A DNA stretch of 64,000 nucleotides from Psammoneis japonica. Lineage: Eukaryota. A program made the position numbers and the translations under genes. Location: NCBI GenBank assembly GCA_008632985.1, contig QPGO01000098.1:1-64000 (forward strand). The letters run 5' to 3'. The number at the start of each line of letters is the position of its first letter. Positions within the stretch are counted from its first letter, which is position 1. A model generated the notes under the pieces. That model was not told where the DNA came from and searched no databases. It saw only the letters and a program-made list of their open reading frames with translations. This document shows positions 1 to 64,000 of this stretch, piece after piece.

Positions 1-1332
1 CTGCTTCACTGGCTGCATCTCCAGCAAGAGCGACAGCTTTCACCACAGCAGCGGCTGATTCATGTGCATGAGAAAGGTTGGAGACAGTGATGGCATGGGA
101 TGCCAACATCTCATGCAAGCCACGGATGTCGTGACAGAGTTGGGCAACTTCCTCCAGAGACTTGTCCAAGGCCACCTTGCAGGCATCAATCTGTTGGATC
201 GCAGACTCCAGTTGAGCATGACAGCAAGACAGCATTTCAGAATCAGGCTCTGGTGGTTTGGATGGGGGTGGTGGAGTCTCTGGTGGTGCACAAGGCCAGC
301 AAGGAGGCAACTGGGGTGGCAAGCAAGGTGGGAGGTGAGGAAGGACCGGCTGCAATGGCGCGCAGCATCTGCTGGAGGGGTCGGAGGGGGTGCAACACCC
401 TCGTCGGGTGCCACAGCAGTGGCATCAGCCTCAGCCTTGACAGCATCCTCTGCCATGGGAGATGTGCACAACTGCAATGCAGCACATGTTGAAGTTTCAA
501 CCAAAACTGGTGTGGGAGACGTGCTGGCACCATTGCGGAGTTGTCAGTGGCTGGCGCGCCATCAGCCAATGACGGAGAGAGGGTGGCTTGCAGGGACAAA
601 AGTCTGGCCCACCAAGAAGATGCCATTTTGGAGTGGGTGCTGTCAGCAGGCACCATGGTTGTAAATCAACTGGAAAAAATTTGCTGTTGTCATTGCGCCG
701 CGCAATGGGCAGTTGGCGTCAGATCTTGCCCGCACATGTCCAAGCAACGAGAGTGCAATGCACGTAGAAAGAATGCTGAAATGTGCACGAGCAGCCACAA
801 AAACAAATGGCAATGGTGTGAATCAGTGTCCAATGCACCAACGCCATTGTTGTCAACAGAGCAGCAGAGTTCATGTCGCACAAACACTCTCTGCCGGTGT
901 TGTCGACAAGGGGAAAAGGGGAGAGTGTTGTGTCCTCAGCGGCAGAGGAGCCCTGCTTGCACACCTGTGCAAGCATTGCTCACAACCTGACAGAGATCCC
1001 TGCATCTGTGCAGGAATGATGCCACCACTGAGACATGTTGCAGTGCTGGATCTTTTGCTCAAGAGCTTGCCAACAGAGTCATGCCAAAATTGCACGACGA
1101 GGAAAAGACAATTGGCAAGAACCAGTCAGAAGCCACAAAATTGAAATGCTCTTGTGCTCTTTTTCCTGCTGAACATTCATGTGGTGCAAAGATGCACCAA
1201 CATTCTTCAAGGGAGAGAAAGCGAATGTCACATCATCTGGTGTTGATTGCAGTTGTCGGCTCGTTGATTTTGTCGCATGAGTTTTCCTGTGACAACTCAG
1301 TCGCTCCAACCTTTCAACAATGACAAGTGACA

Positions 1333-2960
1333 ATGCCACCTAAAAGAAAGGTTGGCTCAAAAGACAAGAAGCCAAGGAAAAAATGGCACTCCTTGACTGA
1401 TGAACAGAAAGCTGAACAGAGCAGGAAACTCTTGGAGATGAAGGCACGGAAGGCCCAAGAGGCTTGTCAGGCTTTTTTTGCTGGTCGTCAATCCCACATC
1501 ACAGGAACACAAGCTTCTTCTGCTCTCAACACATTGAGTGATGAGGGAGTCAATGGATTGATGGGGCAAAAACAAGAGAAACAGCCATCGGTGAGGAGGG
1601 AGAAACCAATCCTGCAGCTGCCCTCATGGCGGCTGCCCTCAACATGCCGCCCACAATGGCAGAACTTGATGGTGTTGATGATTGTGATGGCAAGGAAATT
1701 GACCAAGATGACAAAGGAGAAGAAAACAATGACAACTTTGATGACACTGCCAGGCCAGGTGGGGCGACACTCAATTCTCTCCGAGCAATTTGTGCTCATC
1801 TGCAGGTGGAAACAAGTGGCAATGTTGCAGCACTGAATGCAATGTGGCTGTTGAAAATGCTGGATGACAGTGACTGGAGAACTCCATTTGCTGTGGCAAA
1901 ACATGTTTGTGAAAAGCTGGGCACTCATTTTGGTGAACCATCATCTCACTGCCATGAAGTTCTGGTGCTTGGCTTCCAGATTTCAGATGGGGAGCAGAGG
2001 CCATGCCGCATTGCACAACTTGCAAAACAAATCATCAATTGGGTCATCATCATGGCTGTCAAACCTGCCACTTTGCTTGGCAAATCACAGCCTTGAAAAA
2101 CATGCCATCATGCAATGACAGCTCAGCACATTTGCCGCACTTGCAAAGAAAAAAGCAGGACCACTCAGGAGCCAACATTCAGCACACCTTCATGGGGTGC
2201 AACAAGTCATTCACTGAATTGCTTCCACACAGATGTGGAGATGAATTCCCAGCATTTTCACCACACAGAGCTGGAGTTGACAAGGAAAGTGTTGCACTTG
2301 ATTTGATGAGGCCGTTGCATGACAAGAGGCTCTGAGCTGTTGAATTGGGTGCCAAACATCCAAAGCCTTGGGACTTGCACACAGCAATGGGATGTTGCAC
2401 AGAGTGGCACTGTTGGGCCAGATGTGCTTGTCAAAACAACGTTGTGTGAGACTCTGGAAAAACCAGTGCACCACGCTTGGCGACTCTTGGATTGCCCCAC
2501 TGCGACAAGCTCTTGTGCGCCCGCTCCCACCAAGAATTCCATGGCACAGTCAATCAATGCAATGTTGTTTGGCTTGGAGAGCACATGCAACGTTTCAGTT
2601 GAGAGTGGGCCCAAACCATCCGAGTCCAACACAAGCAGCACTGCCTGGAGCTTTTGCTCATGCTTGTTGTCCTGATTGGGTGCTCGACCCATGTTGTCAT
2701 CTGCAGATCATTCTGAGATGTGACATCAAAACAGTGCAGCCTTTCAGCCAGGTGGCGAAGGGATCAAATGAAGAAAAAGGGCACAACACTCAGCAAAAAA
2801 CAAAAAGACAATGTGGCTGTCAATCAAGATGCAAACACAATGGGTGTGGTGGATTGTGACGGAACAAAGTGATTTTTGCAAAGCTCGTTGGACACTTGCG
2901 GCACAAGCCAAGCTGGCAGAAGAAGCAAAGAGTGGAAGCCCGGGCAGCCTCAACAACTGC
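1333..2960 (+). mobile_element. Degenerate transposon-derived ORF (DUF6729-like region), TpA-depleted and frameshifted
   Basis: Basic N-terminus MPPKRKVGSKDKKPRKK, then fragments 'CTTCK' and 'FPAFSPHRAGVDKESVALDLMRP' resembling the FPAxLTxRxGVD motif of DUF6729-type transposon proteins. Multiple frame switches and no Tyr. Confidence 0.35.
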
Positions 2961-3444
2961 AACAACAGCAACAAGAATCACAGACGTGCGGAGCTTTGTG
3001 ATGCTCCAATGAAATTTTGCACAACCCGTGTGGCCTGTCCAGCTGCGCAGTGGTCTCCTTCTTCTCCCCCTCATCCACCCTGCCTTCAGGGGGGGCGTCT
3101 TCGGCGGAAGTGAGACTGTCGAAGAAAGTTGCATAGAATTTTCACTAAAACAGTCTGTCAATCAGTGTGATTGGGTGTTTGGGACCTCCTGGACAGATCC
3201 TGGCAGGTGTTTTCTTGTGCGCACAAATTGCACTGGGAAACCCCTCAAACGCGCTGGCGATCAGACCGCCTCTTCGACGACTTCACTTGTTCCAAAGACA
3301 CCCCTCCCCCAACCCCCATTGTTTTCAGTTTTGTCCCACAGATTGTGACCAACTAAAATGCAAAACCATGGCAGCATTTTCACAGCTGCGTTCTTTTTTT
3401 GGCTCTCTTCTGAGGGTTTGCAAAAAAGTCTCTTTGAAGGTGTC

Positions 3445-3597
3445 NNNNNNNNNNNNNNNNNNNNNNNNNNNNNNNNNNNNNNNNNNNNNNNNNNNNNNNN
3501 NNNNNNNNNNNNNNNNNNNNNNNNNNNNNNNNNNNNNNNNNNNNNNNNNNNNNNNNNNNNNNNNNNNNNNNNNNNNNNNNNNNNNNNNNNNNNNNNN
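3445..3597. other. Assembly gap (run of N)
   Basis: 153 consecutive N. Confidence 0.99.
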
Positions 3598-4348
3598 AGC
3601 CTGTGCCAGAGGGCTGCGCTGCTCATGGTGGGTGGCGCCGCGCTTGTTTGTTGTGTCAACACAAAGCAGAAAGGTTTTGAGCCCAACTTTTTGCAAAGCC
3701 GGAAATGCATGGGCAAAGCAGCAGACAGAAAGTGTGCAGGTTGCCCAGCAGAGATGTGGCAACTCTGAAAATTCTGCACACAGAGTTGTGCGCAGCAGCT
3801 GACGGTCTGGCCATCTCCGCCGCTTGTGCAGATGGCTCGCACAAGGAAAAAAGGCAAGATTTCAATCATTGCTGAGCACAATCTCCCACATGCAAAACAA
3901 ATGGCTGGCATGTTGTGCTGAAAATCCCGTGCTTCGAACGTACGAGACTCTCCGGCTCTGCCAGATGGAGAGCAGCAGCATCAAATAATCTCGTCGGCAC
4001 CGGTTGGCTGCCTGGCCACACCGCCCAGCCCCCGCCCTGCCCTCGCTCGCTCTGCTGGCTCTCTACAGTGGGGCTAGAGTGTGTACTGTAGTTAGACCGT
4101 AAGGCTTACCGTAGAAAAGACATAATAACTGGAGTGACTCATTAGAAAGTTCCTAGCTTTTATGTTTGGATTCTCAAATAGTTTCTTACCAAATTTTGAA
4201 CCGTTGAACGATGAGAGTACGTCCGTCCATCCCCTCACAACGCAGAAGAATCCAAAAATCGGTCACAAACCAACAAACGAAGCCCACGCCTGCACACGAC
4301 ACAACAACATAAAAATTTCACGCACAACACAGCGAACATCACCTCACC

Positions 4349-5545
4349 ATGGCGACGGCTTGCTTTCCTTATGTCATTGACTATCAGGTTGTCTCCAAGG
4401 GCAAGACCCTTGGCGCTTCCAAGAAGCGCATTATATTCAAATTCGGTTTTGCCAACGCCCAAGCCTTGTCGGATGGGTTGGTGGGAGCGAATTGCCGTGG
4501 CAGCGAACACGAAGTCAATCTGATTTGGAGTCTCAATACCGGCAAGCGTCAAATTCTCGCCGACGGCAAGGAAGTACACTATTCCGAAAGCCGCGCCAAT
4601 GGCTGGACAGCCGACAGGAGCTTTCAACACAGCTTTACGCTGCGCAGTCCGGGCTACGGAGCCTTCAAGTGTCGGGTCGTGTCGGTTCCTGCGCAGCCCG
4701 GCGTCTTGCCGTATGATTTGATTGTCGGCGGTGTTTCGATTCATCGAATGTGCAAGATTTTTCAATTGGGAACGTCTCAAATGAGAGAAATGTCCAGGGT
4801 TATTGGTGGTGACGGTGGTCCGCATCATGACCCCGATATCGATCCGTATGCGTCTCCTGAAGAACGCCGAGCGATTGCGCAAGCAAAATTGGAATCGCTA
4901 CGTGATGTACGTCAGCACCGTACTTCTGCTCCGCCGGCGACAGCAGCAGCGGCACCACCTCCAGTCCGTGAGGAAGCGAGTTTGATTTCCTTTGACGACG
5001 ATCCGGCTCCGCCCGCTGTAGCGGTTGGTGGTATGCCGGACCGAGGCGTTTCGGCTCTCACCATGGATCCGTCCCTGACGCACTCACCACCGGCCGGTCC
5101 CTACGGCGCACCACCACCACCAGGTGGTCAGTACCCACCACAACAGCAGCAAATGTCAAGCAGTGCTCTAACGCCTTGGCAACCTCCTGCAGGTGGTGCT
5201 GGTGCTGCTGCTCCCGGATATGCTCAAGCTCCTCCACCGGTACCACAGCAGCAGCCGTGGGGCGCACAGCCTGCCTATGGTAGTGCTGCTGCTCCGGCGC
5301 CTGCGTATGGAACCGCTCCAGCTCCCGCTTATGGTGCAGCGGCAGCTCCTTCTGTCTATGGCGGTGCGCCTCCGCAGCAGCAGCAGCCAGCCGTGAATCC
5401 CTATGGCGCTCCTGCACCGGCACCTGGATTTGTCAGCCCCGGTGGTAGCGTTGGAACGTATGGATCGGCTCCAGCCTTTGCTCAGCCTCCTCCTGCGGCT
5501 GCTCCAGCAGCAGCACCAGCCTATCCGCAATACACTGGATACTAA
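4349..5545 (+). CDS. Hypothetical protein with a globular N-terminal domain (FAIM-like motif) and a Pro/Ala/Gln/Tyr-rich disordered C-terminus
   Basis: Intact 398-aa ORF with normal codon usage and Tyr present. Motif 'LIWSLNTGKRQILADGKEVH' resembles the FAIM 'SGKRxxxxDGxE'. PAYG repeats in the tail. Confidence 0.85.
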   Translation: MATACFPYVIDYQVVSKGKTLGASKKRIIFKFGFANAQALSDGLVGANCRGSEHEVNLIWSLNTGKRQILADGKEVHYSESRANGWTADRSFQHSFTLRSPGYGAFKCRVVSVPAQPGVLPYDLIVGGVSIHRMCKIFQLGTSQMREMSRVIGGDGGPHHDPDIDPYASPEERRAIAQAKLESLRDVRQHRTSAPPATAAAAPPPVREEASLISFDDDPAPPAVAVGGMPDRGVSALTMDPSLTHSPPAGPYGAPPPPGGQYPPQQQQMSSSALTPWQPPAGGAGAAAPGYAQAPPPVPQQQPWGAQPAYGSAAAPAPAYGTAPAPAYGAAAAPSVYGGAPPQQQQPAVNPYGAPAPAPGFVSPGGSVGTYGSAPAFAQPPPAAAPAAAPAYPQYTGY

Positions 5546-5810
5546 TGTGATATTTGAAGGGCTACTACTATGGAGAATTGGATTGAATGTTTCGTGTTGG
5601 TGTTTTTGTTGCATCGTGTATTGTGTGGAGAAACCAAAAAAAAAAGAGACGCAAGAAAAAACACCTGAAAGGAAAAGCAGTTCTGTTCTACAAAACAGGC
5701 TGCGAGTGACTGATAGTTTCGTTCCCGCCTTTTTTCTGGTTTCAGTTAAGTATAATGTATTGTAAAGTTGTATGTCGCATCAAGAGAGTTATACGATCTG
5801 TTTTCTTTAC

Positions 5811-6087
5811 TGTTCTAGAGTGGTCTTTGATGCAGTATACTGTATCTTGTGAAAGGCGTCAAGGCCACAAAGACGAGAGAACGCCACAGGCTCAGATGCC
5901 CATGTATGTCTCGCTTTTGAATTCTTTTTTGAAACGCACATAACTATTTCTGTGCTGTTCTAGAGTGGCCTTTGATGCATTACACTGCATCTTGTGAAAA
6001 GCATCAAGGCCACAAAGACGAGAGAATGCCACAGGCTTAGATCCCTGTGTGTGGCTTGCTGTTGCATTCTTCTTTGAAACGAACACA
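5811..6087 (+). repeat. ~145-bp tandem duplication straddling the gene/degenerate-domain boundary
   Basis: 5811-5940 and 5956-6087 both begin tgttctagagtgg and share gccacaaagacgagagaa and tttgaaacg. Third partial start near 6166. Confidence 0.9.
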
Positions 6088-7347
6088 ATGTGTGGCAGTG
6101 TGCTGTTTTTGTGACAACACTGGAGATTGCCCCAAGCTTTGAAAACAGACGGGCACACACAGAACGTTCTAGAGTGGAGAGGTGCAGCTTGGCCAAACAT
6201 CATAGATGACATCAGATGAGCTTGGGAAACAGAGTTCATTTTCAAAGCTTGTGACCACTTCATTGTCCCATCTGGGCACCAGCGACCCTGGCCTTTGCTT
6301 CTCAGATCTCCTCCTCCTTGTTCTTCATCTCCAGCTCCTTTTGCTGCTGAATTTTTCCCTCCATCTCCAGCTCCTTTCTTTGTTTCTCCAGCTCCTCTTT
6401 TGCTGAAGTTCGCCCTTGATTGCATCAGTGTCCATGTTGGGAATGCCAGAACTGTGAGTCTTGAGTGAGATTGAGTCCATGTCAAGTGAGATCAATTTCA
6501 TGTGGAGCAAGATCAAGTCCATCTCAAGTGACTTCAAGTTTGGTGTTGAGCAAGATCAAGTCACATTCGAGCGAGATCAACTTCATTTCGAGCCGAATTT
6601 GTCCGCATCTCCAAGCGGGACATGTGAAGCTGCCCATTCACGACAACCGCATTGAACAGAAAAGCAAGTCCACCCAAAGCAAGCAAAGGCACATTTGCCA
6701 ACATCTGCCATGCGCCCGAGAAAACTGACCACTCGAGGACAACACACAAATGGCGTCCAGGTGCTGCTCACTTGTGGTCGCCATCACATGCACTCCTGTT
6801 GCTGCCTTCAGGCTTGTGCTTTGCTGAGAGGTGGTTTGCCCCCCTGACACTGCCATTACAAGGGAGATATCCATCATCTGTGGTGCCATTCCGCTGATTC
6901 AGCCGCCTTTTGAGCCTCCTTCGTCATGGTGCGTTCGGGGTTTTTGTGAACTGAAATCGCCTCCAAAAACATTTGAAATCAAGAGGCGGCACTTCGGCTT
7001 CGCATGACGGTTAAAAATATTCTATTTCAACTAATGAATATATATATATAAATTTATTGAGAGCACCACATGGAGAGTGCGGGTGTTCGGTGTTCGGGTT
7101 CTCCACGATTTTCGGAAAAATCGAATCATTCGATCAAACTCGCATGATGTGAAGCATCAGCAAAATCAAAGAGGCACACAGAGTCAGCGACACTGTTGTT
7201 CTCTGTTGGGAGTTGTTGTGAGTTGTGACTCTGTGTTCCTTGATTGTTTTACTATTTGAGCTCGACATATATTGCGCAAGTCGATTGGTTTTATTGTTCA
7301 ATAAAAGACTACTGAAAGCGTTAGCATTCATTGCATAAGAACAACAT

Positions 7348-8145: not shown

Positions 8146-9933
8146 TTACTTATTTTCTTGTTGTTCTTGTTGTTGTACTCCAATAATTCGATTCATTTCG
8201 TCCTCCAACGTTTGTCCACTTGTAGTTCGTTGACTCAAACACAATCCCACACATTCAAAATACGTAATGACATCTTCGTCGGATGGAGGACTTCCTTCTT
8301 CTAATAAAGTTGCTTCAAAATCCTTCATGGTTTCCATTTCAAGACGAATCGTTTCCATAATGGAATCCAGATGTGTTTGATGGGCTTGTAAGACTTGTTG
8401 TGCAATCAAAACGTGTTCGGCGGGAGGAGTTGTTGTTGTTTTATCCTCCAACAAGACGTGTTGTCCGTTGCTTGTGCTTGCAGGCTCTACTAGTGTTTCT
8501 GCAGCAGTAGTAGGAGCGTCGTCGAAATGACCGTTTGTAGTAGTCGTTTCTTCCTTGTTGTTGGATGTTTCCTTGTGTTGGGGCGACACTACAATATTAC
8601 TCAAGGATTCTCGACGCCATTTTTCTTGTAACAAGGATGATCGTCGACTGCGTTTCGATTTAGCTTGCTTTTTCAATTCTTGTACACCCAACACAAAGGG
8701 CGTGGGCGATGAGTTGCCATAGTCCAAGACACGATTGGGTGATGAAGCAGCATGATTGTCATCCAAAAAATCCGCAGGAAGTTCCTGTTCGCTAGTAGAA
8801 GTACGACTCGATGCCGATGTGAGTCGTACGGGTGGACCCATATTGGTTCGTTTCGGTGGTGGTTTCAAGGGTAAGGCGGGTGCTGCACCCACCACCACCG
8901 ACATGGGTACCGTTGATGAGCCGCCGTAATTACTGCGTCGTGGTGAAGGACTCGCACGTCCACTAAGACCAAACGGACTTGCCGTCAAAGTCCGACGACT
9001 GTTGGGACGTTGCGACGGAGATGTCATGGAGGAAGAATGGAATCGACGAAAACTGCTACTAACGGATCGTCTGCTTGCCATGCTGGCACGAGATGCCAAA
9101 CTGGCTTCGTCCAAAAAGGAAAAGTTGGATTGTGCATCGTCGTCATCATTGTTTTGCATGCTTTTCAAATACTTTTGTATCCGTGGATCCTTTTGTACAA
9201 TGGGATTGTTCTCAATCAATTGATTCAAAACGGTCGGTTCAAATTTCTCATGAATCACTTGCAATCCCAACTTGGCTTCTTGTCGTACGGCCGCACTCGC
9301 ATCCCGCAACGCCCGAACAAAGGCTGTACCGACTTGAATGGCAATTTCCGTTGTGATATAATTGGGTTCCGTCGTCCACGATTCCAATGCCAATTTTAAA
9401 TACAATGTACACGCATGTCGAATGGTACGGCTTTTCGAGAGTGGCAATCGTTCCAACATGCATGGCATGCATGCCTTGCACGGGACCAACGGCAAGACTT
9501 GTGTCGTCATTTCTTGTACCGCCGTTCGAATGGTATTGACCGTTTGACCGTGCACATCTAAAATGATGGGCATGAGTTCCTTCCACAAGAGTTTACCATA
9601 CACACCGGGACGTTTTTGATACAACAAGACCAAACTCTGACAAACCGACTTGACGACTGAACTGCGTGGATCCTTCAACAGTGCCGTCAGAGGTCGGTAG
9701 AGACTACGAATCGATTTGGGAACATTGTACCACATGTCCGAATCGACATTGTCGTCATTAATGCTTTCTACAAGAGATTGAAAGGCATTTGTACGACGTT
9801 TCCATTCATCGGGTTTGGTATCCTGAATGAGCTCTAAAAAATTCACCAAATCCGCATCGTCGACAAATAATACCGTGTCGCTCAGTTTTTTACTCTTTTG
9901 TGCTGACCGAAAGGGCGTGGCGGAATATGCCAT
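8146..9933 (-). CDS. CLASP-N/TOG (HEAT-repeat) microtubule-associated protein
   Basis: Likely start MAYSATPF at 9933. TOG-like 'EWKRRTNAFQSL', 'LKDPRSSVVKSVC' and 'LRDASAAVRQEAK', then a Ser/Arg-rich linker and helical C-terminus. Confidence 0.8.
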   Translation of the reverse strand: MAYSATPFRSAQKSKKLSDTVLFVDDADLVNFLELIQDTKPDEWKRRTNAFQSLVESINDDNVDSDMWYNVPKSIRSLYRPLTALLKDPRSSVVKSVCQSLVLLYQKRPGVYGKLLWKELMPIILDVHGQTVNTIRTAVQEMTTQVLPLVPCKACMPCMLERLPLSKSRTIRHACTLYLKLALESWTTEPNYITTEIAIQVGTAFVRALRDASAAVRQEAKLGLQVIHEKFEPTVLNQLIENNPIVQKDPRIQKYLKSMQNNDDDDAQSNFSFLDEASLASRASMASRRSVSSSFRRFHSSSMTSPSQRPNSRRTLTASPFGLSGRASPSPRRSNYGGSSTVPMSVVVGAAPALPLKPPPKRTNMGPPVRLTSASSRTSTSEQELPADFLDDNHAASSPNRVLDYGNSSPTPFVLGVQELKKQAKSKRSRRSSLLQEKWRRESLSNIVVSPQHKETSNNKEETTTTNGHFDDAPTTAAETLVEPASTSNGQHVLLEDKTTTTPPAEHVLIAQQVLQAHQTHLDSIMETIRLEMETMKDFEATLLEEGSPPSDEDVITYFECVGLCLSQRTTSGQTLEDEMNRIIGVQQQEQQENK

Positions 9934-22642: not shown

Positions 22643-22664
22643 AAGTCAAATTGCATCTAACACA

Positions 22665-30441: not shown

Positions 30442-30508
30442 TAGATGCATATATTTTTGAATGACTTTTTAAATGCCACGTGGTTGCATTATTCTCTACT
30501 GTATCAAA

Positions 30509-53223: not shown

Positions 53224-54500
53224 TCATTGTAGAGTTTGCTGCCAGCTGATGCAGGTGCCGATGCAGTGCAAACCACCATGGGCCAAGTGTTGCACGTGAG
53301 CCTGTTTGCTGAGAACATGGGCCAATGCCAGACCATCGTCACGAAGTGAGACGATCTTGGTGGCGTGGGGAGCATCCAAACCCCCTGGAATGTCCAAAAT
53401 CGGGTTGATGAGTCGAGCCAAGGCTGTCTCCTGATGCCACCTGGACTCTGTCCAGGCGGTCCAATTGGATCTCACTGCCAAGGGATCTTGGTTCTCCTCT
53501 TCCTTTTCTGGAGGAGGCGGAGGTGGCAAACCCAGGTGCGTGCACCAGCACCACCACAACCAGTCCATCGGCGGGAACCATGACCTGGAATTCATGCAGC
53601 AGCTGATGGAATCGGCGGCTGGATCAAGCATGGGTGCAAATGTCAATGACGTTTGAATTTGACCAGGATGGCAATGATGACCTTCCATTGTGGCCATGGT
53701 GGCCAGATTGCCGCCGGCCGAAACTCCCAGAAGATGCAATGGATGGTTCGGCAATGTTTCCACAAAGTGCAACAGTGCCGTCAATGTTTCCGTCACGGCC
53801 CTTGGGAATCTGTGGTCGGGGGCCAAACTGCACTCAACCGAAGCCCAAATCAATGGTTGCCCCACACGTGTGGTGAGTTCGAATCCGTCCGGTGCACTTG
53901 CCGCACCAATGTGCATCCCTCCACCATGAAAGTCCACCACGATGGGAGCATCTGCTTGGAACTTGTCTGGATCCAATGCTGTTTCCATGGTCCAGCAACC
54001 GATCTCGTTTTTTTCTTTGCCAAGATCACCTGCCTGCTTGCAGATCGATTGGGGGAATCGAATGATGACAAGAATGTCATCTTTGGGAAGATTGTTTCCA
54101 GGCCACCACAGTCTGCTTTGTCGCAAATGTTCCGCTCTTTCAAAACACCAGGTCGACACGGCATCCTGTGATGGCACTCCACGATGTTGCAGCGCATGCT
54201 TTTTGTCCATTCTGTGATGTGTTTTTTGTTCGTGGCAGGAAAATTGGAGGCAAAACTGGCGCGGAGCTGGTGTGTTTCCACCTGCGTTCGACGATTGGCA
54301 TGGGTCGTGGGCAGAGATGGAAACTGATGCGTGGGCAGCATGATGCTGAGCAACCAAGTGCACAAAACATCCAACCACATCCTGGTGGGGTGGAAGAAGG
54401 GACTGTGAGGCTTCTTCTGACTGCCGGGCTGCAGAGGAGGAGGAGTTCCTTGAGTTGTTTTCCCTCCTTTGGACGAGCAAGCCACTTTCGTTCCTGCCAT
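53224..54500 (-). pseudogene. Decayed hormone-sensitive-lipase-family (Abhydrolase_3) esterase
   Basis: 'VDFHGGG', 'VECSLAPDHRFP' (family consensus VxYxLAPEHxFP) and 'GVSAGGNLA'. Frameshifted, with no Tyr in the 452-aa ORF-track translation. Confidence 0.8.
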
Positions 54501-54989
54501 GGTCTGAATGCTGTTGAGATTGCAGAACAAAAAAAATCAAGGGGATGAACACACAACAACAAAGCAAACAAGTGCAGAGCACAACGTGTTTTCAGGTGAC
54601 GACGTGTGCAGGATTCATCCATTTGCTTCTTTTCACTGCCAGCAGTGCATGCGTGCACGAGCACGACACACAGGGAGTTCCGGGTTTTCTTCCAAACGAC
54701 TGAAACAATTGAAACCCGGAACTTCCAGTGGAGCGGAGAATGAAATGAGATTCAAGATTTGGTGCGTGCGGGCTGGCGCACGCACGTTTGGCAAGCCAGC
54801 CAGCACACTTTGCTGCATCCAAAACAGCGGCACGGAAAAAGCAAGGGAATGGGAAAACTTCAGTTGGACCGTTTTTTGACGCAGCCACGGCAAAGAGATT
54901 GCCATTGTCATTTCACAGTGCTGCGCTGGTGCTGATTGACAGCAAGACTGCAAGAAAGGGAAGAATGTGGGGCAAAACCAGCCGGTCGA

Positions 54990-55200
54990 TGGCGATGGGG
55001 AAACGCAAGTTTCCTTGGATGCAAGATCAGGGAGAGAACGTGTGCGATGTTGCAAACAGGGTCTTTTGTGACAACAGTCGGTTCGTGATGGACCTCATTG
55101 AAGACAAGAACAGCGTGCTCTTCACGCATCCTTTGCAACTGGGCAAGACGACACTGTGGTCGCTGGCGGAGCTCCTCCTCAGCAAAAAGAGGACCTCGCA
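54990..55200 (+). pseudogene. Decayed AAA-ATPase-like (PF09820-type) N-terminal fragment
   Basis: 'FCDNSRFVMDLIEDKNSVLFTHPLQLGKTT' versus the family pattern YxDxxxxI...LFxRPRRxGK(S/T). R->H/Q changes fit CpG decay. Confidence 0.5.
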
Positions 55201-58200
55201 TCCCAACCAATCACATGAGCCGCCACCCCCAATGGGAAGATGGAGCTGGTCTCAGTCTCTTACAAATGCTGCAATGCAGCAACCTCATTTCTTTGGATGA
55301 TCCACAGACAATCATTTTGTCTGTGACTGCTGAAAAAGCACCCAAACACATGTTTAGTTCAATGAAGTTCATCTCTTTGCATTGACGCAAAACAAACAAT
55401 CTCGCAACCAAGTCATTGGCACAGAGCTGTCATTGACATGTGTGTGTTTGCCGGTGTGGCCTGGACCGCGCGAAGATTGTCAAAATGTCAAAATGGCATT
55501 TCAACATTGACGGGGACCCCCCGCAAGTCTGTGCAACCATCCAACGGAGCATTTTTTGCGAGTTGAACGCAACTCTTCTCGTGTTGTCACCACGGTGACC
55601 TTCCTTTGAAGTCTGTTGCATGCCAACCTTGTTGCAGCTGTCCTGCTGGCGATCCTTTTCAACAAATCGTTTGTTCTGCTCCTGTTGCTGACATTCAGTG
55701 AAAAGGATCGCCAGCAGAAAGTGTTTTGCAACAACAACAATTGCACCTCAATGTCGCCGTCACCAATCAGCAGCAACACCCCAAACGCCTCCAAGCCGGC
55801 TCAAATGGAAGAAAAAGCCGGCAATCCTGGCAGATGATGCACGGGGCCAGCATGGAAGAAAACCAGGGTTTCAGTGCCATGGGTGAGTCGCAAAATGTCA
55901 ATGTTCCTTGTCAGTGTTGCATCAACGTCTTGCATCTCACAAACGTTCATTTGGTCGTTGCAACTGTCCTGCTGTCAATGCTTTCACACAAGTCATTTTT
56001 TCTGCTCCCATTGGTGACGTTTGATCGAAAGGATTGACAGCAGCAGGCATTTTTGTGACAATGATTGTTTGTCTCTATGTCGCCGTCGCCAAGCCAGCAA
56101 CACAAAAAACGCCTCCACCAGGTCATCCAAATGGAAGGCAAAGCCGATGGAAAGAAATGAAGGAAGAGGCGCAAGCAAGAGATGTGGAATGCCCCAAGCT
56201 GTTCCTTTGTTGATGGAGAAGTTTTGAGTGTGAAAATCACCACAAGCTCTGTCTTTTGTGGATTGGTGGCAACAAACAAACATGCATTCAGTCAGAGGCA
56301 CCGGAAACAAAAAGGGAAAGTCAAGATGTCTCCTGTGGGACATTCACAATGCCTGCCCATCAGAGAATGACAGTTTGAGGGTTTGAAACATGGTCTGAGC
56401 TGGGACAACTGCAGCTAGAAACACTGCTGTTTGTCAGCATGTGCAGCATTTGCCACAACTCTGCATTCCAGGTTTTGATTCTACAACTCTCATTCCAGGT
56501 TGTGTCTGACAGAAAGACTCTACAGAGTGTCACACTGGTGTCTCACAATGGCAATTGCTGCAGTGCTTGAGCAACTCCTGCACAGAGAAACACCCAACAC
56601 ACCAGTTGTGTTGCGTTCTCGTGGATGGGCTTGATTGCAGTCGTTGTCGAACAGAAACACTCTGCAAAGCATTGCATTGGTGTCTTGTGATCATGTGTGA
56701 ATGGTTGTTGCTGTGCTCAAGCAACTCCCACACAGAGAAACCGCTCTCGAGCGTCATCCTGCCGCATGCCGGCACGCAAGGGCACGCTGCTCCACCGCAG
56801 CTCATTTGCAGAAGCAATCGACTGATCAACCAATTTCTCGCCCAATTCTTTGGATCCGCCATCATCAACAGTCTCGGAATCTGACTCAATGTGATGTGTT
56901 TCCGAATTGCCAGAAGCATCGGGAGAAGCATGACCTTTGTTCTTCTTGCATGTGCGAGTGGCCTGCTTCCGACAAAGTCTGAATTGCCTCCACCACTGCC
57001 GCGCCGTCCTTTTCCCTCGCGTTGCTGAGGAGATGTTTGTTCCCAATCCTTTGAGGAAGACACCCTTCAAAATTCTGTGCATCACAGCAACCATGTTGGA
57101 GTTCTTCACCCGCCAGAGCGACAGCGCAGTGGCACTTGCCTCTGCAGTCGTTTGCTGGGAGGGCAACTGAATTTGATGCGCCTTAGAGGCAGATGAGACA
57201 TTGGACTCATGGAGTCCTGGAAAGCCACCAGATTGCAGTGACTTCAGCACAAGGTCACTGTCCATCCACACACATGGAACCGCAGCTGGAAAAGCGGCAA
57301 TGAGAAGCCACACAGCCTCGACAATCTCCGTGGTTGGTTTGCTGTTTTTGTGACAAAAAAAAACATCACGCAGCAACCACGGAGCTGAAGGAGCTACGGA
57401 CAACGTACAGACTTACGGGGGGTCCCCATTAAAAGGGCGGTCCAGAGATTGCCTGGTGCACTTTTTACGTAGAAACTGCCAGAGAGCCAATCACGTACAT
57501 TCCTGCACAGACGCAGTGCAAAACAGAAAGCATGGCACTCCATCACGCGACCTCACGACGACACCACCTGATGACAACGCATCAAAATGGCATCGTCCGC
57601 ATCTTTCTGCAGCTCCTCTTTCACTCACCCGATTGCTCCAAAAGGGCCAGGGGAAGCTAACAAGCTTTCTCTCACAATGGAGCAATGCAAACAAAAGTTG
57701 TTTTTTATTCCAAAATCTCAGAGCACAGTGCAACCGATTGTCAAGGCGAACTCGCACGTTGGCGGCAACAACGCCAGTCAATGTTCACTCTAGAACAACA
57801 ATGGAGACGTGACACCCCAACAAAATAAAGTCCATGCCCCCATGACAAATTTTAAAGCTGGTTCTTCTTGTTGGTGTGCAATCTTTAGCTGCTTTTTAGA
57901 CTTGACAAAATGATCATCTGCCCCGGCTGTCACCCTCCAAGTTTGTTGCATTGGCTGACAAATTGGGCAAGCAAGCCACACATTTCTAGCTCACAAACTA
58001 CCTTGCAGCCAAAAGAAGCAATCTAAACTTTCAGAACAGCCATGATGCACTGGTCTGCCGAATCAAACTCCGCATCACCAAGTGGAGGCGGGGAGAACCA
58101 TTTTTCAAAAATGCACTGTGAAGGATCTGAGCTCTTGAGAGCTTGTCCAGCTTTTGACGCCATAGCCCCAAATCACCACATTTGTTGTTAAGTCAGCCTG

Positions 58201-59051
58201 ATGCTGTGTCTGTGACTTTGCCTCGTTTTGGAATTGCCACGGCCATCGCATTGCAGAATTGACATCCTTGACGAGGAAAAGTGTTTCTGGGATGCCTTGC
58301 GACGACGGAGACCCTGCAGAACAAAAGAACAATGTAGAAAGAGACAACACATGTAAGTCAAACGGGTGTTAATGTATAAAGCCTCAACGAAACACACAGC
58401 ACGAATGGTGATACATAAGGTCGGTCGTGATGCAACAGAAGCGACGCTGTCAACGCGAACCTTCAGTGAGAATTTTCACCATCAGCCACCCATGTGAACC
58501 TGTGCACTCTCGAGCTTGTCACATACCTTATGCTATGACGTAAGATATTCCGTTGAGAGTACACTACAAAGTACCTCAGAAACAACCGTATTTTTGAAAT
58601 CGGCGAAACGCCATTGTCCGTGTTATTTTGCGTGTTATTTTGCGTCGCGAGCCAGAAAACACTCCCAAAAACTGTTCTACAGGGCAAAATGTACTGAATC
58701 TACACAGATTTGGGTTGTACCAGGCCACGTAGAAAATGAACGGGCCGAGAACTGTGGTACGCCCACTTAATGGGTCATTGTGGTCCCAGTGGTTCAAGGT
58801 GGTTTCACAGGATGGGTTTGGATTGGCAAAGCGACAGTTCCATCGCCGATCGCCTCAAAACCCGGATGCTTTGTAGGATTCTGCGAGAGTTTGAGTACCA
58901 ACCCGCGGCGAACGGTGCAGAGAGAACCGGAACAGTCGCGTACTACACAGTCTACACGGTCGTAACGATACACTGCAGTCAAACCGATGAACATGCAGCG
59001 CAGGCACATAGACTCTACGATTCGATTCAACACCCTTTGCACAATATCATC

Positions 59052-60939
59052 ATGAACGGCAGTAGCAGTGTGGTCGAGACGGTGCAAGTGAACGATGAGA
59101 ACGAAAAGCCATTGGGGAGAGTCAAGGTTGGGGACACGAAACTGCAAGCTCTGGAGCGACTTTCCCGTGTTGGAGCTGGAGGACTGTATGACAAGTACGA
59201 CATTGGTCTTCTCGACAGTGAGTGTATCACTGCGGAAGCAGCGCCTTACATTTTCAAGGGGGGAACGGGGGCACCGCCCGATGATAAGAAGCGGAAGTAC
59301 GGGGAGTTGGAGACGGAAAAACTTACGCATTATGACCCCGCCTTATTCTATTCCCCTTCTGACACACCGCTGCCAGTCGTATATGAGAAGGACGAGATTC
59401 AGCCGTTTCTGGCGCCTGAAGGTTGGTTGAATGACACTGCTAAGGATGTGTTGAAGCAGGCCGATCTCAAAGAAACGAACAACCCTCGTGTGAGTCCGGT
59501 TGCCCTTGTTCGGTGCAGCCGTGGGGGGAAAACGAGATCTATGATTGAACTTGCGAAAGCAGTTCGAGCTCAAGATTCTTCGTATGGCATATTGTACATG
59601 ACTTTCAATACGGACACTCCTCTTCAACACAAGCCTGCTCGTGATCCTATGGCAGAGCTTTGTGTCAGAATTGCGTTCGCAGCTTCCAAAGTTCGGTCGG
59701 GGCCTACCAAACAATATGAAGAGTTCCTCGATTTCTCCAGAGCCAAAAGAGTTTGTCGACAATGGGTTGAGGATTGGTTGGGAAACAACAAGTGTATTCT
59801 CTTCATTGATGAGCTGAACATGCTCCAGGACACCATTGGCCCCGAGGAAGCAATTTTCCTCAAGCAAAACTTCCTGCTTCCAAGCGGGAGGGGGCTCGTC
59901 TTTTCATCGCACGTGGCTTCATTCAGCAACGAACTCGTCGATTTCATGTCGTCTCCAAGTGATCGAAAAAGTCATTACGTGCCCTCTCCCGATCATACCG
60001 TCTCTGCGTGAAGCAAGAGATCAGTTTCGAATGCCGGATTTGTCGCCGCAGGATGCTGTGTTCTTGGGCTTGATTCCAGGGTTGATAGTAGAGAGAAAGC
60101 TGCATCGTGCACCGACAGAACGCCGAATTAACGCCGTCGAGAAATTCCTCGGAACTGTCCGAAACCAAGAAGACGTTTGCAAGCTCGTAAGCTCACTGTT
60201 GACGGGAGAGTCCATTGATAGCTCGTTGCAAGAGCTAACAACCGTCGATCTTAAGCATGACGGCACACGGATTCTCAGGTGGATTCCTTTTCACCTGCAC
60301 TACGTGCTTGATCGAATCTCTCGGGAGTGCCCATACGTCGATACGCAAATGCGCCACTGCTTGTCATCTATTGTTGATCTATTTCGGCAATTTGCAGGTT
60401 CAAAATGGGAAGCTGGAGATGCGTGGGAGGCCCTGTTCCTTATTGTTTTGATTGTTCGCTGCCAAAGTGGGGAATTCGACGATGCAGTTATCCCATTAGG
60501 TCCTCTCATCACGAGCAGCATCCAGGTGCAGTACAACAGACCACTGAACTATAATGTTGACTTCTTCAAGGAAACGAATCCTGTTGACTTTGTTGGAGGT
60601 ATCCCTCTCCGAAGCTGGGCGCCAGCGGGGACGTGCGCTTTGTCCATCTACTATCCCGGGCACGCCCGGTTTCAGGCATACGACGTCATCCTTGCCTTTT
60701 GGGATACGGCTGGAAACAGGTTGTTGTATGGGTACCAGCTGAAGGAGGGCAGCACCATCCCATCAGTGTTTGCGTTTGACCAAGTGTTCAAAAAGAGTTT
60801 TCTTATCCGAGGGAAGACGACGCAGGGAAGTCGAAGTGTGAGATTGTGGCACTCGGTGAGTGACACCGAACTGGACAACTTCTTTGGGGTGTCAGCCGCT
60901 CACTGGTCTGCAAAGCAATGGAGAAAGCTACAGGAATAA
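59052..60939 (+). CDS. Crinkler-like P-loop NTPase + REase-fold protein; one apparent frameshift at the A-run ~59966-59970
   Basis: Variant Walker A 'LVRCSRGGKTR', Walker B 'ILFIDELN', then 'GDAWEALF' and 'YYPGHARFQAYDVILA...YGYQLKEG' (PD-(D/E)XK-like D...QxK). Likely start MNGSSS at 59052. Confidence 0.72.
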
Positions 60940-61272: not shown

Positions 61273-64000
61273 TTAGCCGACCGCGGCGTCACGAGATTGT
61301 GACGCCCATCCAAAGTAGCTGAGAATAGTCCGAGTACCGCGCACGGCAAGTCGTTTTGCCTCTCTCATGCTTGTTTTAAAAAGTGATTTGTTCGTAGCCA
61401 ACCAGTTACGAATCTGATGAGTCGACTGGTTTAGATGCTCTTCAACCGTGTCGAATAAATAATGCCGATCCTTTGCCAAATGTTCATTCTGTCGTTCGTA
61501 TGTCAACCTGAGTTCAGCCTCAGCAAGTCTGCGCTGTGCAGACTTCCACGTTTCTTTGTCGTGTCCGTGAAGAGCCTTATTGTGGTCATCCCATAAAGCC
61601 CACCATTCTTTCCACACAAAAGAACCAATGCTGGTCACCCAATCACTTCTGCGTTTGTTAGTGTTACCTTCATCTGACCTCACGCGACGCTCAAGTGCGT
61701 GAAACCGTTGGAGCTCATTCCACAGATGCGAAAAAACGACCGTTGAAAATCTGTCGCCATCCGACAGCCTGTTGTGAAGCAGCCACTTGGCGCACACGGG
61801 GATGAATCGAAGCAACATTGAGAACTTCCTCATTGAACCACGCTTCCAATCCTTGCAACAACAGATCCCTCAAAGGAGGCATCGCATCTAATTCGTCACA
61901 GCGCCGACGTGAGCCTTGCAAAAATTTTTCGACGCCACTGTGCCTGTCTCGGGCACCGAAGGATATGGTCTCGATCCTCCATGGGATGCTGACAGTGGAG
62001 ACAACAGTCCGATCGCGCAGGATTGCATCGATGTGCAATCTCATTCACAGGCAAAACATCCTGAACCAACCCAACGGTTCCAACTCTGTGTTTGGCATGA
62101 CAATGCATTAAAGTTGCGTGCGTCTTCCAGTCGACTTGGTTGAAGACCTCTTCAGACCAAGAGTGCTTTTGCTTCATGTGCTCAATTGGCACAGGAGATG
62201 CTGCTGCGTGTCGAATCTGGCTCTTGAAATTGGACGTAACAGCTCCTTTCTCGAGAAGAAAATTGGCAGCGCAATGAGGCAAGCGTGGTGCAGTTTCAGT
62301 GTCACCAAAATGTTTGCCCTGGAATGCTCCAGCCAAGTGATCGGCCCGAACGTTCAACCGCACATTAAGAGGAAGTCGGGAAAGCGGAGTGTGGCGATCC
62401 TGGTGTCCTTTAACCCATTCAACGGCAACAAAAGTGCCGCTCTTGTCTTGCACCCGGCATTCCTGTAAATCAAGAAAAGCATGAAGAATTTCGTTCACGA
62501 CATCCCAATCCGGAGACAATGTGTGCGAGACATGGTGACGAAGAAGGAAATCCGTTTGGCTGTCCAAGGAGCATTCCTCACACTCAACGGGAGGAGGGGT
62601 GTTGAGATTTTGGACTGCGTTCACGAGGGAGCTGTTGTCACACACAGACAAAAAGCCTTGCAAGAAAACCGCATCGCAAAATTCCATCAGCCGAAGCATG
62701 AATCGAGACACAGATGACAGACCACATGCTTCCGCTCGGTGCGAAGCAGGGCGTTTCCCAAAAACCGGTCCAGCACAATCAACCAAAATAACTCCTTCAA
62801 TCGTGAGTGTCCAACCAAAGGTGGCAGACTCGTGTGTGATGGAGCCGTCGCTGCCCATTTTTCCAATCGCAGTGCGAAGGGCATCAGCAATCTCAAACAC
62901 GGAGCGGTGCAGGGTGAGGAACAACTCAAAGTCAGATGCACTTGGAAGAGCAAGCGGAGCATCAAATCCCACTCGCTGAAAGGAGATTGTCCAATGTCCA
63001 GTGTCGGCAGAATCAACGAAGATGGGAACAGCAGCAGAAGAAGGATGGGGAACCACTTCCAACGCACTCACCGAGTCAGCGCTCACATTGGACACCGGAA
63101 AAATTTCAAAACCCAAGGGTGATCGAATGTAAAGGAACTGTTCAGTTGAAGAGAAACACGCCGATGCCTGCATCCGCATTTGGTCCACTGGGACCACCCA
63201 ATCCCCTGAAGGCTCCCGTAAGTCGCAGGCATCTGAATTGCAGAAAAGAAGGCATGCGCGTCGCCATTGTTTCCAGGCGGCTGGGGACGGATTTTCCTGG
63301 TCAACAAAAATTAATCTGGCAGGTGCTGCTGGCTGGGGGATGGTTGTCCCAGCACTTTAGATTCATCAAGACTGAGGCCATCAGGAAGCGCAACATCAGA
63401 AAGCGTGAGAACCTGAAGAAACAGACGGCAATAATTTGCCAAGCATGCTTGACGATTGGCGAACATTCCTGACTCCAGGACCGCGTCCACAATGTGTTGG
63501 TCGTCATTGTGCTGAAGGGGAAGAACTCCACTCTGATCCAGTTCCATTCTGCCATTAATTCGAGAGAGGAAGGACCGAAGTGACATCAGCCATTTTGATT
63601 CAGAATGGGGAAGAACCGCAGTGACGTCATTGAGACAACTAATTCCTGTGCCCAGATGAAGTTGTGTCCACGAGACGGCAATGCGCAACAGCAAATTCGG
63701 CTGACCATCACCTCGCCAGTGCTTGAGAAATTGGAGAGCTTGAGCCAATCCTTGTTCCACATCTGGGGAGCGAAAACCACCGCCTCCCAACGAGCAAGGG
63801 CCACACAGAAGATCCCGTTTCGTGTTGCGGTTGTAGCCACATTCAGCAAAAACAGCTCTCATGGCTTTCCGTTGGATCTCAAGAAGTTGCTTGGGCAGGA
63901 AATGAGTGTTCGGGAGAACGCAGGCAACAGACGGAAGACAGCTTGCATGACAATGAGTCCAGGCATTGCTGCGGGTCATCGGACAGTTTCGAACAAGAGC
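61273..64000 (-). mobile_element. 3' part of a non-LTR retrotransposon (LINE with RNase H and C-terminal zinc knuckle, Ambal-like), frameshifted, running off the window end
   Basis: Post-RT 'NRNTKRDLLCGPCSLGGGGF'. RNase H 'SDGS...GW...RAEACG...CDN...WVKGHQD...LNVRADHLA'. CCHC 'CLHCQHPMEDRDHILRC', 'QQAVGWRQIFNGRF' and 'WALWDDHNKALHG'. Confidence 0.9.

Follow-up and report, generated by a model that had tools for sequence, protein, structure and literature searches.

The closest described system is that of Bigelowiella natans, in whose mutation-accumulation lines integrated viral DNA is hypermutated from TpA to TpG or CpA (Mettrop et al., bioRxiv 10.64898/2026.01.13.699255). This 2026 preprint is the only earlier report of the signature. 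Of the 231 new mutations that it records in two viral inserts, 230 are A→G or T→C changes, each of them at TpA, and it gives a mutation rate raised about 1000-fold in living lines. The inserts, a 186-kb giant-virus and a 25-kb virophage element, are described as far from saturation (TpA rho 0.45). The same source lists 124 TpA-depleted clusters, finds TpA rho of at most 0.43 in 5% of 1-kb windows, and reports no C→T excess in the hypermutable regions (1/211). A sequence-only reading of the DNA studied here, which had proposed TpA hypermutation of transposons and dead genes, knew of no described system of this kind and has been overtaken on that point.

Ascomycete RIP is similar in its logic: transitions at particular dinucleotides pervade DNA that is repeated or mobile, and neighbouring genes are spared. 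However, RIP changes C to T at CpA, making TpA and AT-rich DNA, which is the opposite direction to the change seen here, where GC content is unchanged (0.491 vs 0.475) and no stop codons are produced. RIP is recognized by TpA/ApT above about 0.89 and (CpA+TpG)/(ApC+GpT) below about 1.03; the values in our tracts are 0.059 and 1.91, and RIP was rejected. Polynucleotide deaminases (TadA/ADAT2-3, ADAR, AID/APOBEC, and the engineered adenine base editors) are alike in another respect, as deamination of A to I, read as G, yields the observed change. TadA/ADAT2-3 act on tRNA A34, ADAR on dsRNA, and AID/APOBEC on C in ssDNA, and APOBEC3 is a precedent for hypermutation as defence. ADARs differ in being animal enzymes with an RNA substrate and APOBECs in changing C rather than A, and we know of no natural DNA adenine deaminase established for genome defence.

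Loss of TA and CpG in seven tracts

The window, the whole stretch of 64,000 nucleotides that was analysed, contains seven TA-depleted tracts that occupy 39,143 bases (61%) of it (Table 1). Tracts were called by a two-state HMM on TA positions together with 1-kb windows, with expectations taken from base composition. They hold 128 TA dinucleotides against approximately 1,424 predicted at the O/E of the flanks (Poisson P = 0), with a TA O/E of 0.02–0.12 per tract (0.05 pooled) and 0.47–0.67 in the flanking segments. The borders are sharp (≤300 bp). Around the tract starting at 10419, which is flanked by a CLASP/TOG gene (8146–10134, minus strand) and an ORF from about 13296 (plus strand), the closest TA dinucleotides beyond the borders are at 10418 and 13349. 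The gene islands have a GC content of 44–52%, and 3.9% of their dinucleotides are TA. The tract list of the sequence-only reading was reproduced almost exactly, except that its tract at 45.6–58.3 kb ends at 57.4 kb in the HMM, the remainder (57.4–58.3 kb) being merely partially depleted. Its estimate by eye of about half a dozen TA against roughly 200 in 10.4–13.3 kb was close to the count, and the saturation with TG/CA that it described beside normal-TA neighbours corresponds to a TG+CA O/E of 1.39–1.83 in the tracts vs 1.20–1.33 outside.

Table 1. Positions of the TA-depleted tracts and of the features within them (obs, observed; exp, expected).
Feature	Position	Strand	Measurement or evidence
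TA-depleted tract; 153-N assembly gap 3445–3597 inside	1–3940	.	TA 6 obs/220 exp; CG O/E 0.38; TG+CA O/E 1.83
TA-depleted tract; left border inside 145-bp tandem repeat (5802–6088)	6039–7011	.	TA 4 obs/62 exp; CG O/E 0.48
TA-depleted tract	10419–13348	.	TA 5 obs/220 exp; CG O/E 0.19; TG+CA O/E 1.83
TA-depleted tract, largest	15110–29521	.	TA 56 obs/946 exp; CG O/E 0.30
Tandem duplicate in the largest tract; copies 27651–28424 and 28425–29204	27651–29204	.	93.6% identity
TA-depleted tract	32076–34808	.	TA 7 obs/193 exp; CG O/E 0.31; TG+CA O/E 1.80
TA-depleted tract with copia remnant and dead hydrolase gene	45575–57394	.	TA 34 obs/728 exp; CG O/E 0.48; TG+CA O/E 1.71
Ty1/copia-type retrotransposon remnant: Pol_BBD 51779–52606, SH3_retrovirus 50241–50759, RVT_2 49361–50194	49361–52606	-	Pfam
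Dead alpha/beta-hydrolase gene (Abhydrolase_3), open 455-aa frame, zero Tyr	53227–54591	-	Pfam 3.5e-13
TA-depleted tract, less advanced, continues past window end	61666–64000	.	TA 16 obs/136 exp (O/E 0.12); CG O/E 0.80
486-aa ORF, mobile-element-type protein	61899–63356	-	8 homologs, 25–34% identity

The sequence-only reading accounted for the TG/CA excess by loss of TpA through transitions, which holds, but it overlooked that the same tracts are depleted of CpG. The CpG O/E is 0.19–0.48 in the tracts, apart from 0.80 in the last one, and 0.90–1.10 outside (pooled, 0.40 vs 0.96). In the dinucleotide balance, a TA deficit of 1,296 and a CG deficit of 1,324 sum to 2,619, TG+CA is in surplus by 2,394, and CpG decay accounts for about half of the TG/CA excess. 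When 126 windows of 500 bp were classified, 50 were low in both TA and CG, 26 were low in TA with normal CG, 50 were normal in both, and none combined normal TA with low CG; CpG loss was found only within TA-depleted DNA. A sub-block of the largest tract (20001–21500) has a TA O/E of 0.09–0.16 with a near-normal CG O/E of 0.74–0.92. TC, CC, and GA have an O/E of 0.87–1.00 in the tracts, where TA and CG are the depleted dinucleotides, and AID/APOBEC-type hypermutation (C→T or G→A in TC or CC) was rejected.

The CpG deficit with its matching TpG/CpA excess is consistent with 5mC-type decay, as are the sites where duplicates differ by CG/TG or CG/CA and the Arg→His/Gln/Trp replacements described below, but such decay is unable to remove TpA. 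Given that the hypermutable regions of B. natans show no C→T excess, the CpG loss here requires a second process.

Direction, strand symmetry, and context of the change

Among 274 tract ORFs of at least 75 aa, only four matched a Pfam family and 270 had none; ORFs of this size in tracts 1–3940, 10419–13348, and 15110–29521 gave no match. Two scans of viral contigs turned up no relative. Because so few ORFs match Pfam, a mobile or foreign origin is established for parts of two tracts only. The transposons and dead genes of the sequence-only reading are borne out by the copia remnant, the RNase-H-type ORF, and one dead gene, while most of the tract DNA has no recognisable origin.

The proteins encoded in the tracts reveal the direction of the change. 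At 23 columns with conserved Tyr, three tract-encoded proteins have Cys or His at 16 and Tyr at none. The copia RT ORF lacks Tyr entirely, and six columns that are Tyr in 18–21 of 22 homologs read C, H, C, C, H, and H. The aligned homologs contain 2.6–4.8% Tyr, with one exception (0.8%) whose own Tyr residues are mutated to Cys/His. All six Tyr-majority columns of the hydrolase are changed, one of them being Tyr in 25 of 25 homologs, and the replacements are again three Cys and three His, as in copia RT. Conserved Arg is kept at one of six positions in the hydrolase; the others read H, Q, W, K, and S, the first three of which match the products of CGN→CAN/TGG. In the 486-aa ORF, one of whose eight distant relatives is labelled ribonuclease HI by its source, Tyr amounts to 0.2% vs 2.5–3.6% in homologs, and the eight Tyr-majority columns hold two His, two Cys, three Phe, and one Leu. 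Tract frames of 278–486 codons are open and align to homologs without frameshift.

Duplicated DNA was compared as well. Transitions make up 36 of the 38 mismatches in the tandem duplicate of the largest tract, and its 18 differing YR pairs comprise seven CG/TG, three CA/CG (together 10 of 18), seven CA/TG double changes, and one TA/TG. In the repeat at 5802–6088, which spans a tract border, the outer copy reads TA at five sites against TG (two) or CA (three) in the inner one, and one site shows the opposite. Contigs of run X1 contain 62% of the sampled words from 45001–55000, and the aligned copies differ at 488 transition places vs 53 transversion places, a comparison that rests on contigs and may not be independent, X1 possibly being the assembly's own data. 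The loss of TA via transitions to TG and CA is supported jointly by the Tyr→Cys/His replacements, the balanced dinucleotide counts, and the duplicate differences. In 80 related copia loci from metagenomes, the TA O/E has a minimum of 0.31 and a median of 0.59, and none is below 0.3. The sequence-only reading had named TpA-free active consensus elements as grounds against itself; these loci do not refute it, because related active-type elements are not TA-free. The TA scarcity is the result of mutation rather than ancestral composition, and the changes arose in place, after duplication.

The change is strand-symmetric, as had been proposed: TG (4,265) and CA (4,136) are nearly equal in number and interspersed, with runs-test z values of -2.5 to +0.6 across the tracts. 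It is also biased by context. The 128 surviving TA dinucleotides divide into 3 RTAY, 55 mixed, and 70 YTAR, whereas the split is 314/498/153 for TA in normal DNA and 2,040/4,391/1,969 for tract TG/CA sites (chi-square P ~1e-26 and ~7e-18, respectively). Survivors are thus rich in YTAR and poor in RTAY, which implies a 5'-TAY preference (TAY>TAR), deduced from survivors rather than from mutation events seen. In tRNA, A34 is always preceded by U33, and the natural site of E. coli TadA is U-A-C-G; these contexts of TadA/ADAT2-3 resemble the preference deduced here.

Proposed mechanism and alternatives

We conclude from the sequence that the TpA hypermutation, together with CpG decay, is real, takes place at the DNA level, and is restricted to domains. 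The best overall explanation, to which we assign a probability of roughly 0.8, is that blocks of mobile-element DNA, in which one or more genes were also trapped, have been altered in place by two context-specific transition processes, the first probably due to an adenine deaminase. The first process would be fast and near-saturating, converting TpA to TpG or CpA, that is, A to G on either strand at equal odds, more efficiently with a pyrimidine after A. The second would be a slower decay of CpG to TpG/CpA, as caused by cytosine methylation, and both end within a few hundred bases of adjoining genes. The TpA process removes every Tyr codon, TATA and AATAAA motifs, and TAA/TAG stops and creates no stop codon, thus leaving dead elements with six open-looking frames. 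The likeliest agent would be a TadA/ADAT2-type polynucleotide adenine deaminase acting on DNA and presumably recruited to foreign DNA marked by methylation or heterochromatin.

A modified base could produce the same change without an adenine deaminase, if modification of the thymine at TpA (to 5-hydroxymethyluracil or a base-J-like TET/JBP product) or of an adenine leads to mispairing or faulty repair that gives T→C or A→G. The data determine the dinucleotide and the transition only, and because 5'-TAY is 5'-RTA on the opposite strand, symmetry and context suit a T-directed process equally. The preferential occurrence of 5hmU and base J at T before A, reported in dinoflagellates and kinetoplastid telomeres, also speaks for this alternative. 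We nevertheless consider it unlikely, as 5hmU:A pairs are not known to us as strongly mutagenic and nothing in the window favours a modified base. The sole study of the signature proposes deamination of A, likewise unproven (bioRxiv 10.64898/2026.01.13.699255).

Much less probable still is ADAR-like A-to-I hyperediting of retroelement transcripts that became DNA by reverse transcription before integration. One tract does contain a retrotransposon, and ADARs favour U ahead of the edited A, as the same preprint states; however, the strands are equally affected with no strand runs, TA loss is ~95–98% complete, the hydrolase is a non-retroelement gene, the tandem copies diverged locally post-duplication, the change fades over a border inside a tandem repeat, and CpG is lost from the same blocks. 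We give as little credence to a sequencing or assembly artefact in which a modified base is miscalled and TA is really present. The support from X1 consists of contigs rather than raw reads and its library type is not on record, but these contigs reproduce the tract sequence at a word depth of ~56, and the long frames align to homologs unbroken. Strand-specific miscalls should moreover produce a consensus of mixed letters, with CG among them, yet the tracts are poor in CG; and in B. natans, Illumina reads yielded heritable TpA→TpG/CpA changes (bioRxiv 10.64898/2026.01.13.699255). That the elements were always TA-poor through selection or ancestral composition, e.g. by avoiding a TA-cutting nuclease or TA-targeting transposons, has a negligible probability: we found no supporting point, Tyr codons conserved in every relative have given way to precisely those two codon families that lie one transition away, and the related copia elements are not TA-poor.

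Comparison with B. natans and significance

The window shares with B. natans TpA-directed A→G/T→C transitions with TpG and CpA products on both strands. There, according to the preprint, they are exclusive to TpA and limited to stretches of foreign or mobile origin, and most coding sequences predicted in the TpA-poor, CpA+TpG-rich clusters lack annotation or encode transposon domains. The differences are that the viral inserts there are unsaturated, whereas transposon-type tracts here are near saturation; that CpG is lost here, whereas the word "CpG" is absent from the main text of the preprint; and that a TAY>TAR bias is found here, whereas "context" and "trinucleotide" are absent from that main text.

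The host is probably different as well. That the window comes from B. natans itself, and would be one of the 124 clusters listed there, is suggested by the identical signature, but we consider it unlikely. Depletion extends over 61% of the window, compared with the 5% of 1-kb windows at low TpA rho in B. natans. In two N-termini of the window, a signal peptide has Phe after it, as is usual in algae whose complex plastids are of the red type. The CDC50 and amine oxidase genes have a single split each, and 58955–60916 is covered unbroken by an RNA-like contig. Pfam-supported open exons of 1,986, 1,707, and 1,317 bases are long beside the mean of 159 bp, at 8.8 exons per gene, in B. natans (PMC12730881, Table 1), and argue for a different organism that is intron-poor. 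In favour of B. natans, its genome is given as 45% GC with 4.1% TpA in CDS (bioRxiv 10.64898/2026.01.13.699255; PMC12730881), beside 44–52% GC and 3.9% TA in the gene islands here.

Fungal RIP has its mirror image in a mutator that changes A:T to G:C at one dinucleotide and only in selected parts of a chromosome. That transposon tracts are saturated in a probable second lineage suggests a general means of killing mobile DNA rather than a peculiarity of two viral inserts. The TpA process is tied to decay of CpG, which makes a tie to cytosine methylation probable, and its context preference is a property that any candidate enzyme must reproduce. In practical terms, the near-absence of TAA/TAG from the tracts (2.5 vs 16.7 per kb) leaves each of the six frames apparently open, and gene prediction will yield spurious genes in them. 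Base-editing work would have an interest of its own in a natural DNA adenine deaminase. We tentatively suggest, as a possibility rather than an expectation, that a natural 5'-TAY-preferring DNA adenine deaminase is directed to mobile DNA that is methylated or heterochromatic and acts there as a mutator in genome defence. It would do so in two or more distantly related lineages of algae, represented by a chlorarachniophyte and by the intron-poor organism studied here, which probably has a red-type plastid. If this is true, the mutator system would be old or horizontally spread, and it would be traceable via deaminase paralogues common to carriers of the signature.

Extent and contents of the TA-depleted tracts

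The window is a mosaic with 48% GC and a single gap of 153 N. A two-state model applied to TA positions delimited seven tracts with very little TA, summing to 39,143 of the 64,000 bases. They retain 128 TA where about 1,424 would be present at the level of the gene islands, the segments separating the tracts, in which the observed/expected ratio (O/E) of TA is 0.47–0.67. Both edges of the tract at 15110–29521 are abrupt: on the left, TA occurs at 15087, 15092, 15098 and 15109 and next only at 15834, and on the right at 29272 and 29297 and then at 29522, 29539 and 29548.

TA-depleted tracts of the window and identifiable elements lying in them
Feature	Position	Strand	TA observed	TA expected	Remark
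TA-depleted tract	1–3940		6	220	
TA-depleted tract	6039–7011		4	62	
TA-depleted tract	10419–13348		5	220	
TA-depleted tract	15110–29521		56	946	
TA-depleted tract	32076–34808		7	193	
TA-depleted tract	45575–57394		34	728	
TA-depleted tract	61666–64000		16	136	
Ty1/copia-type remnant	49.4–52.6 kb				Pfam: RVT_2, SH3_retrovirus, Pol_BBD
Dead hydrolase gene	53227–54591	minus			Adjoins copia remnant
Mobile-element-type ORF	61899–63356	minus			Distant homologs

The sequence-only reading had placed these tracts at almost exactly the coordinates that the model reproduces, and had described their contents as transposons and dead genes. That description holds for the copia remnant, the hydrolase gene and the mobile-element-type ORF, but goes beyond what could be identified elsewhere: in a Pfam scan of 274 of the 280 tract ORFs of at least 75 aa (six touching the N gap were excluded), only four matched a Pfam family and 270 did not. 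Self-BLAST of the window found no LTR pair for the copia remnant, and neither Rfam matches nor tRNA genes (ARAGORN) were found in the window. Two ORFs from the biggest tract, possibly spurious, had no relatives among viral contigs in a search sensitive to close relatives only. Within the copia remnant, the summed word depth, which is not a copy number, reaches 22,000–38,500 at 50707–51974; this piece, one loose end of which resembles a tRNA T-arm, may be a SINE-like insert. The remnant also holds a 111-base direct repeat (51018–51128 and 51355–51465).

The gene islands carry ordinary eukaryotic genes, encoding CLASP/TOG, CDC50, Ysc84, FG-GAP, amine oxidase and DHFR-like proteins. The DHFR-like ORF (35059–35844, plus strand; Pfam 6.5e-10) is followed too closely by the next gene, on the opposite strand, to accommodate a fused thymidylate synthase, and may be a diverged paralogue. 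Two predicted N-termini, running from 45532 downwards (minus strand) and from 43001 onwards (plus strand), consist of a hydrophobic signal peptide with Phe immediately after it (...STAAS|FQP and ...KSDG|FLSP). Such a motif directs plastid import in algae whose complex plastids are of the red type; here it is only a hint of lineage.

Contigs of X2, an RNA-like run, match the gene islands and hardly the tracts, which is not evidence of tract silence; an RNA-like contig is unbroken across 58955–60916. Another X2 contig omits 45196–45319 (minus strand, 124 bases), a GC-AG intron that starts with GCAAGT and ends with CAG. The intron sits in TA-normal DNA, about 250 bases away from the edge of a tract. 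A T-to-C transition in the TpA of a donor reading GTAAGT would produce this GCAAGT.

Direction of change

Four independent lines of evidence, namely Tyr columns, count balance, relatives and duplicates, say that TA (and CG) turned into TG/CA. A Tyr codon is impossible in TA-free DNA. The copia reverse-transcriptase ORF (49361–50194, minus strand), aligned to 22 of 33 database relatives, has no Tyr at nine Tyr-consensus columns; the six well-aligned ones, with Tyr in 18–21 of the 22 relatives, read C, H, C, C, H and H, and three poorly aligned N-terminal ones read L, Q and G. In the hydrolase ORF, aligned to 25 of 150 listed relatives after short or partial ones were left out, all six Tyr-majority columns are Cys (three) or His (three), including one with Tyr in 25/25 homologs, while Gly (10/10) and Leu (11/11) columns are intact. 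Conserved Arg is kept at only one of six columns of this ORF, the others being H, Q, W, K and S, of which H, Q and W are products of CGN to CAN/TGG changes. The mobile-element-type ORF has eight distant relatives, one called ribonuclease HI by its source, and its eight Tyr-majority columns are H (two), C (two), F (three) and L (one). In the three proteins combined, Cys or His stands at 16 of 23 Tyr columns and Tyr at none. P0004, a relative of the copia reverse transcriptase on a 47-kb genome contig, is itself hypermutated: 25 Tyr-conserved columns hold 12 Cys, 3 His and 3 Tyr. A strand bias at that locus may explain why Cys outnumbers His.

The dinucleotide counts balance accordingly: the deficits of TA (1,296) and CG (1,324) add up to 2,619, and the surplus of TG+CA is 2,394. 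Because the TA and CG changes cancel in GC, the tracts are inconspicuous by GC content (0.491 vs 0.475 outside). Related copia loci have normal TA; all 80 from metagenome contigs lie at a TA O/E of at least 0.31 (0.31–0.83, median 0.59). The sequence-only reading had named TA-free active elements as an observation that would refute it, and these relatives do not show it.

Duplicated sequences within the window point the same way. The tandem pair 27651–28424 and 28425–29204 has 38 aligned differences, 36 of them transitions, and its differing pyrimidine-purine dinucleotides are CG/TG (7), CA/CG (3), CA/TG (7) and TA/TG (1). The CA/TG differences are adjacent double changes, as expected if one ancestral TA or CG was resolved independently in each copy. 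A 145-bp tandem repeat straddles the left edge of the tract at 6039–7011, and at five sites its outer half has TA where its inner half has TG/CA, with one site opposite. The changes in these duplicates arose on the chromosome, after local duplication.

As sources of the tract signature, RNA-level editing, ancestral composition and artefact are contradicted by these analyses. X1, a sequencing run of 2019 whose contigs were matched to the window, contains 62% of the words sampled from 45001–55000. Its contigs show 0–1 differences from gene islands across 645–1,961 bases and reproduce tract sequence as well. Many more of them match the tracts at 90–99%, indicating that tract sequences are repeat families, and the differing places comprise 126 A>G, 121 T>C, 141 C>T and 100 G>A changes and 53 transversions, with adjacent double changes between TG and CA among them. 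Since X1 is possibly the assembly's own data and contigs alone were matched, this is supporting evidence and not independent proof. One X1 contig of single-copy word depth (56) joins 55506 to 58767, and the absent 3,260 bases (55507–58766), TA-depleted in their left part and TA-normal from 57395, may be an insertion polymorphism or reflect another haplotype. At 57.0–58.9 kb the summed word depth, again not a copy number, is 2,300–5,900, possibly marking a young high-copy element.

Strand symmetry, neighbour bias and nested CpG loss

The tracts are strand-symmetric, with 4,265 TG vs 4,136 CA, and Cys:His is 3:3 in two proteins. The order of TG and CA is as random as in normal DNA (runs-test z from -2.5 to +0.6), and the runs test found no long, kataegis-like one-strand runs of TG or CA exceeding those of normal DNA. 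The neighbours of the 128 surviving TA are strongly skewed, to RTAY 3, mixed 55 and YTAR 70 (TTAA alone 29, GTAC 1), vs 314/498/153 for TA in normal segments and 2,040/4,391/1,969 for TG/CA sites inside tracts. The simplest reading is a process that, on either strand, alters A far more readily in 5'-TAY than in 5'-TAR.

By the genetic code, a TpA to TpG/CpA change creates no stop codon. TAA/TAG fall to 2.5 per kb in tracts vs 16.7 outside; AATAAA/TTTATT stand at 1 vs 30 and TATAAA/TTTATA at 1 vs 6. With stops, signals and Tyr codons erased, it is missense change and missing signals that kill the elements, and every frame still appears open. The drop in TAA and TAG leaves 280 stop-to-stop ORFs of 75–486 codons across all six frames in 39 kb of tract, from which gene finders would call false genes.

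The core of the sequence-only reading, a strand-symmetric change of TpA into TpG/CpA, is borne out by all four lines of evidence and by the symmetry; what it overlooked is that the tracts are also depleted in CpG, whose overall O/E is 0.40 vs 0.96 outside, with TG and CA each at about 1.72–1.73 vs 1.23–1.24. Among 126 windows of 500 bp, 50 are low in both TA and CpG, 26 are low in TA with normal CpG, none has normal TA with low CpG, and 50 are normal for both. The blocks with near-normal CpG (20.0–21.5 kb and 61.7–64 kb) are also those retaining most TA. This nesting indicates that the two processes are separable and act in the same domains, the TpA process being faster and CpG decay coming later.

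Comparison with Bigelowiella natans and candidate mechanisms

The statement that no system of this kind had been described held until 2026 and is now superseded by the preprint of Mettrop et al. (bioRxiv 10.64898/2026.01.13.699255), which reports the same signature in Bigelowiella natans on the basis of 15 mutation-accumulation lines. In these lines, 231 of 302 new substitutions fell within two integrated viral regions, one from a giant virus and one from a virophage, and 230 of these 231 were A to G or T to C, every one at TpA, at rates of about 6e-7 per site per generation and in some lines only. If the rate in B. natans applied here (u_AT->GC of 6.85e-7 per A/T site, with TpA at 3.3% of dinucleotides), TpA would, by a rough estimate, have a half-life of 1e4 to 1e5 generations. 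The B. natans genome holds 124 TpA-poor, CpA+TpG-rich clusters enriched in transposon domains and unannotated CDS, and the authors suggest an ADAT2-like adenine deaminase as a candidate. CpG and the words "context" and "trinucleotide" are absent from the main text of the preprint, and its supplements, among them a cluster list and a motif figure, may already include a flanking-base motif. Apart from this preprint, the literature searched yielded work on fungal RIP and RNA editing but none on DNA hypermutation directed at TpA.

Gene structure and the share of depleted DNA indicate that the window probably does not stem from B. natans itself. B. natans has 8.8 exons per gene with a mean of 159 bases (Table 1, PMC12730881), whereas the window has Pfam-supported unbroken coding stretches of 1,986, 1,707 and 1,317 bases, and its CDC50 and amine oxidase genes are each interrupted just once. 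According to the same table, GC is 27% in the other chlorarachniophyte that has been sequenced. Tracts make up 61% of the window vs 5% of B. natans 1-kb windows reported below a TpA rho of 0.43.

U33 always precedes A34, the target of tRNA adenine deaminases, and TadA of bacteria acts at UACG. Both agree with a preference for TAY, and a TadA/ADAT2-type paralogue is accordingly the leading candidate. For the observed signature, with its direction, symmetry, borders, neighbour bias and nested CpG loss, we propose that an enzyme would convert A to hypoxanthine at TpA on either DNA strand in marked domains, the mark being perhaps cytosine methylation itself or one shared with it. A thymine-directed route, through 5hmU or a J-like base, would fit the sequence data as well as adenine deamination does. 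The TpA hypermutation itself is real and striking, and its signature is of a kind described once, very recently, most likely in another organism; its role in P. japonica would be the inactivation of mobile DNA.
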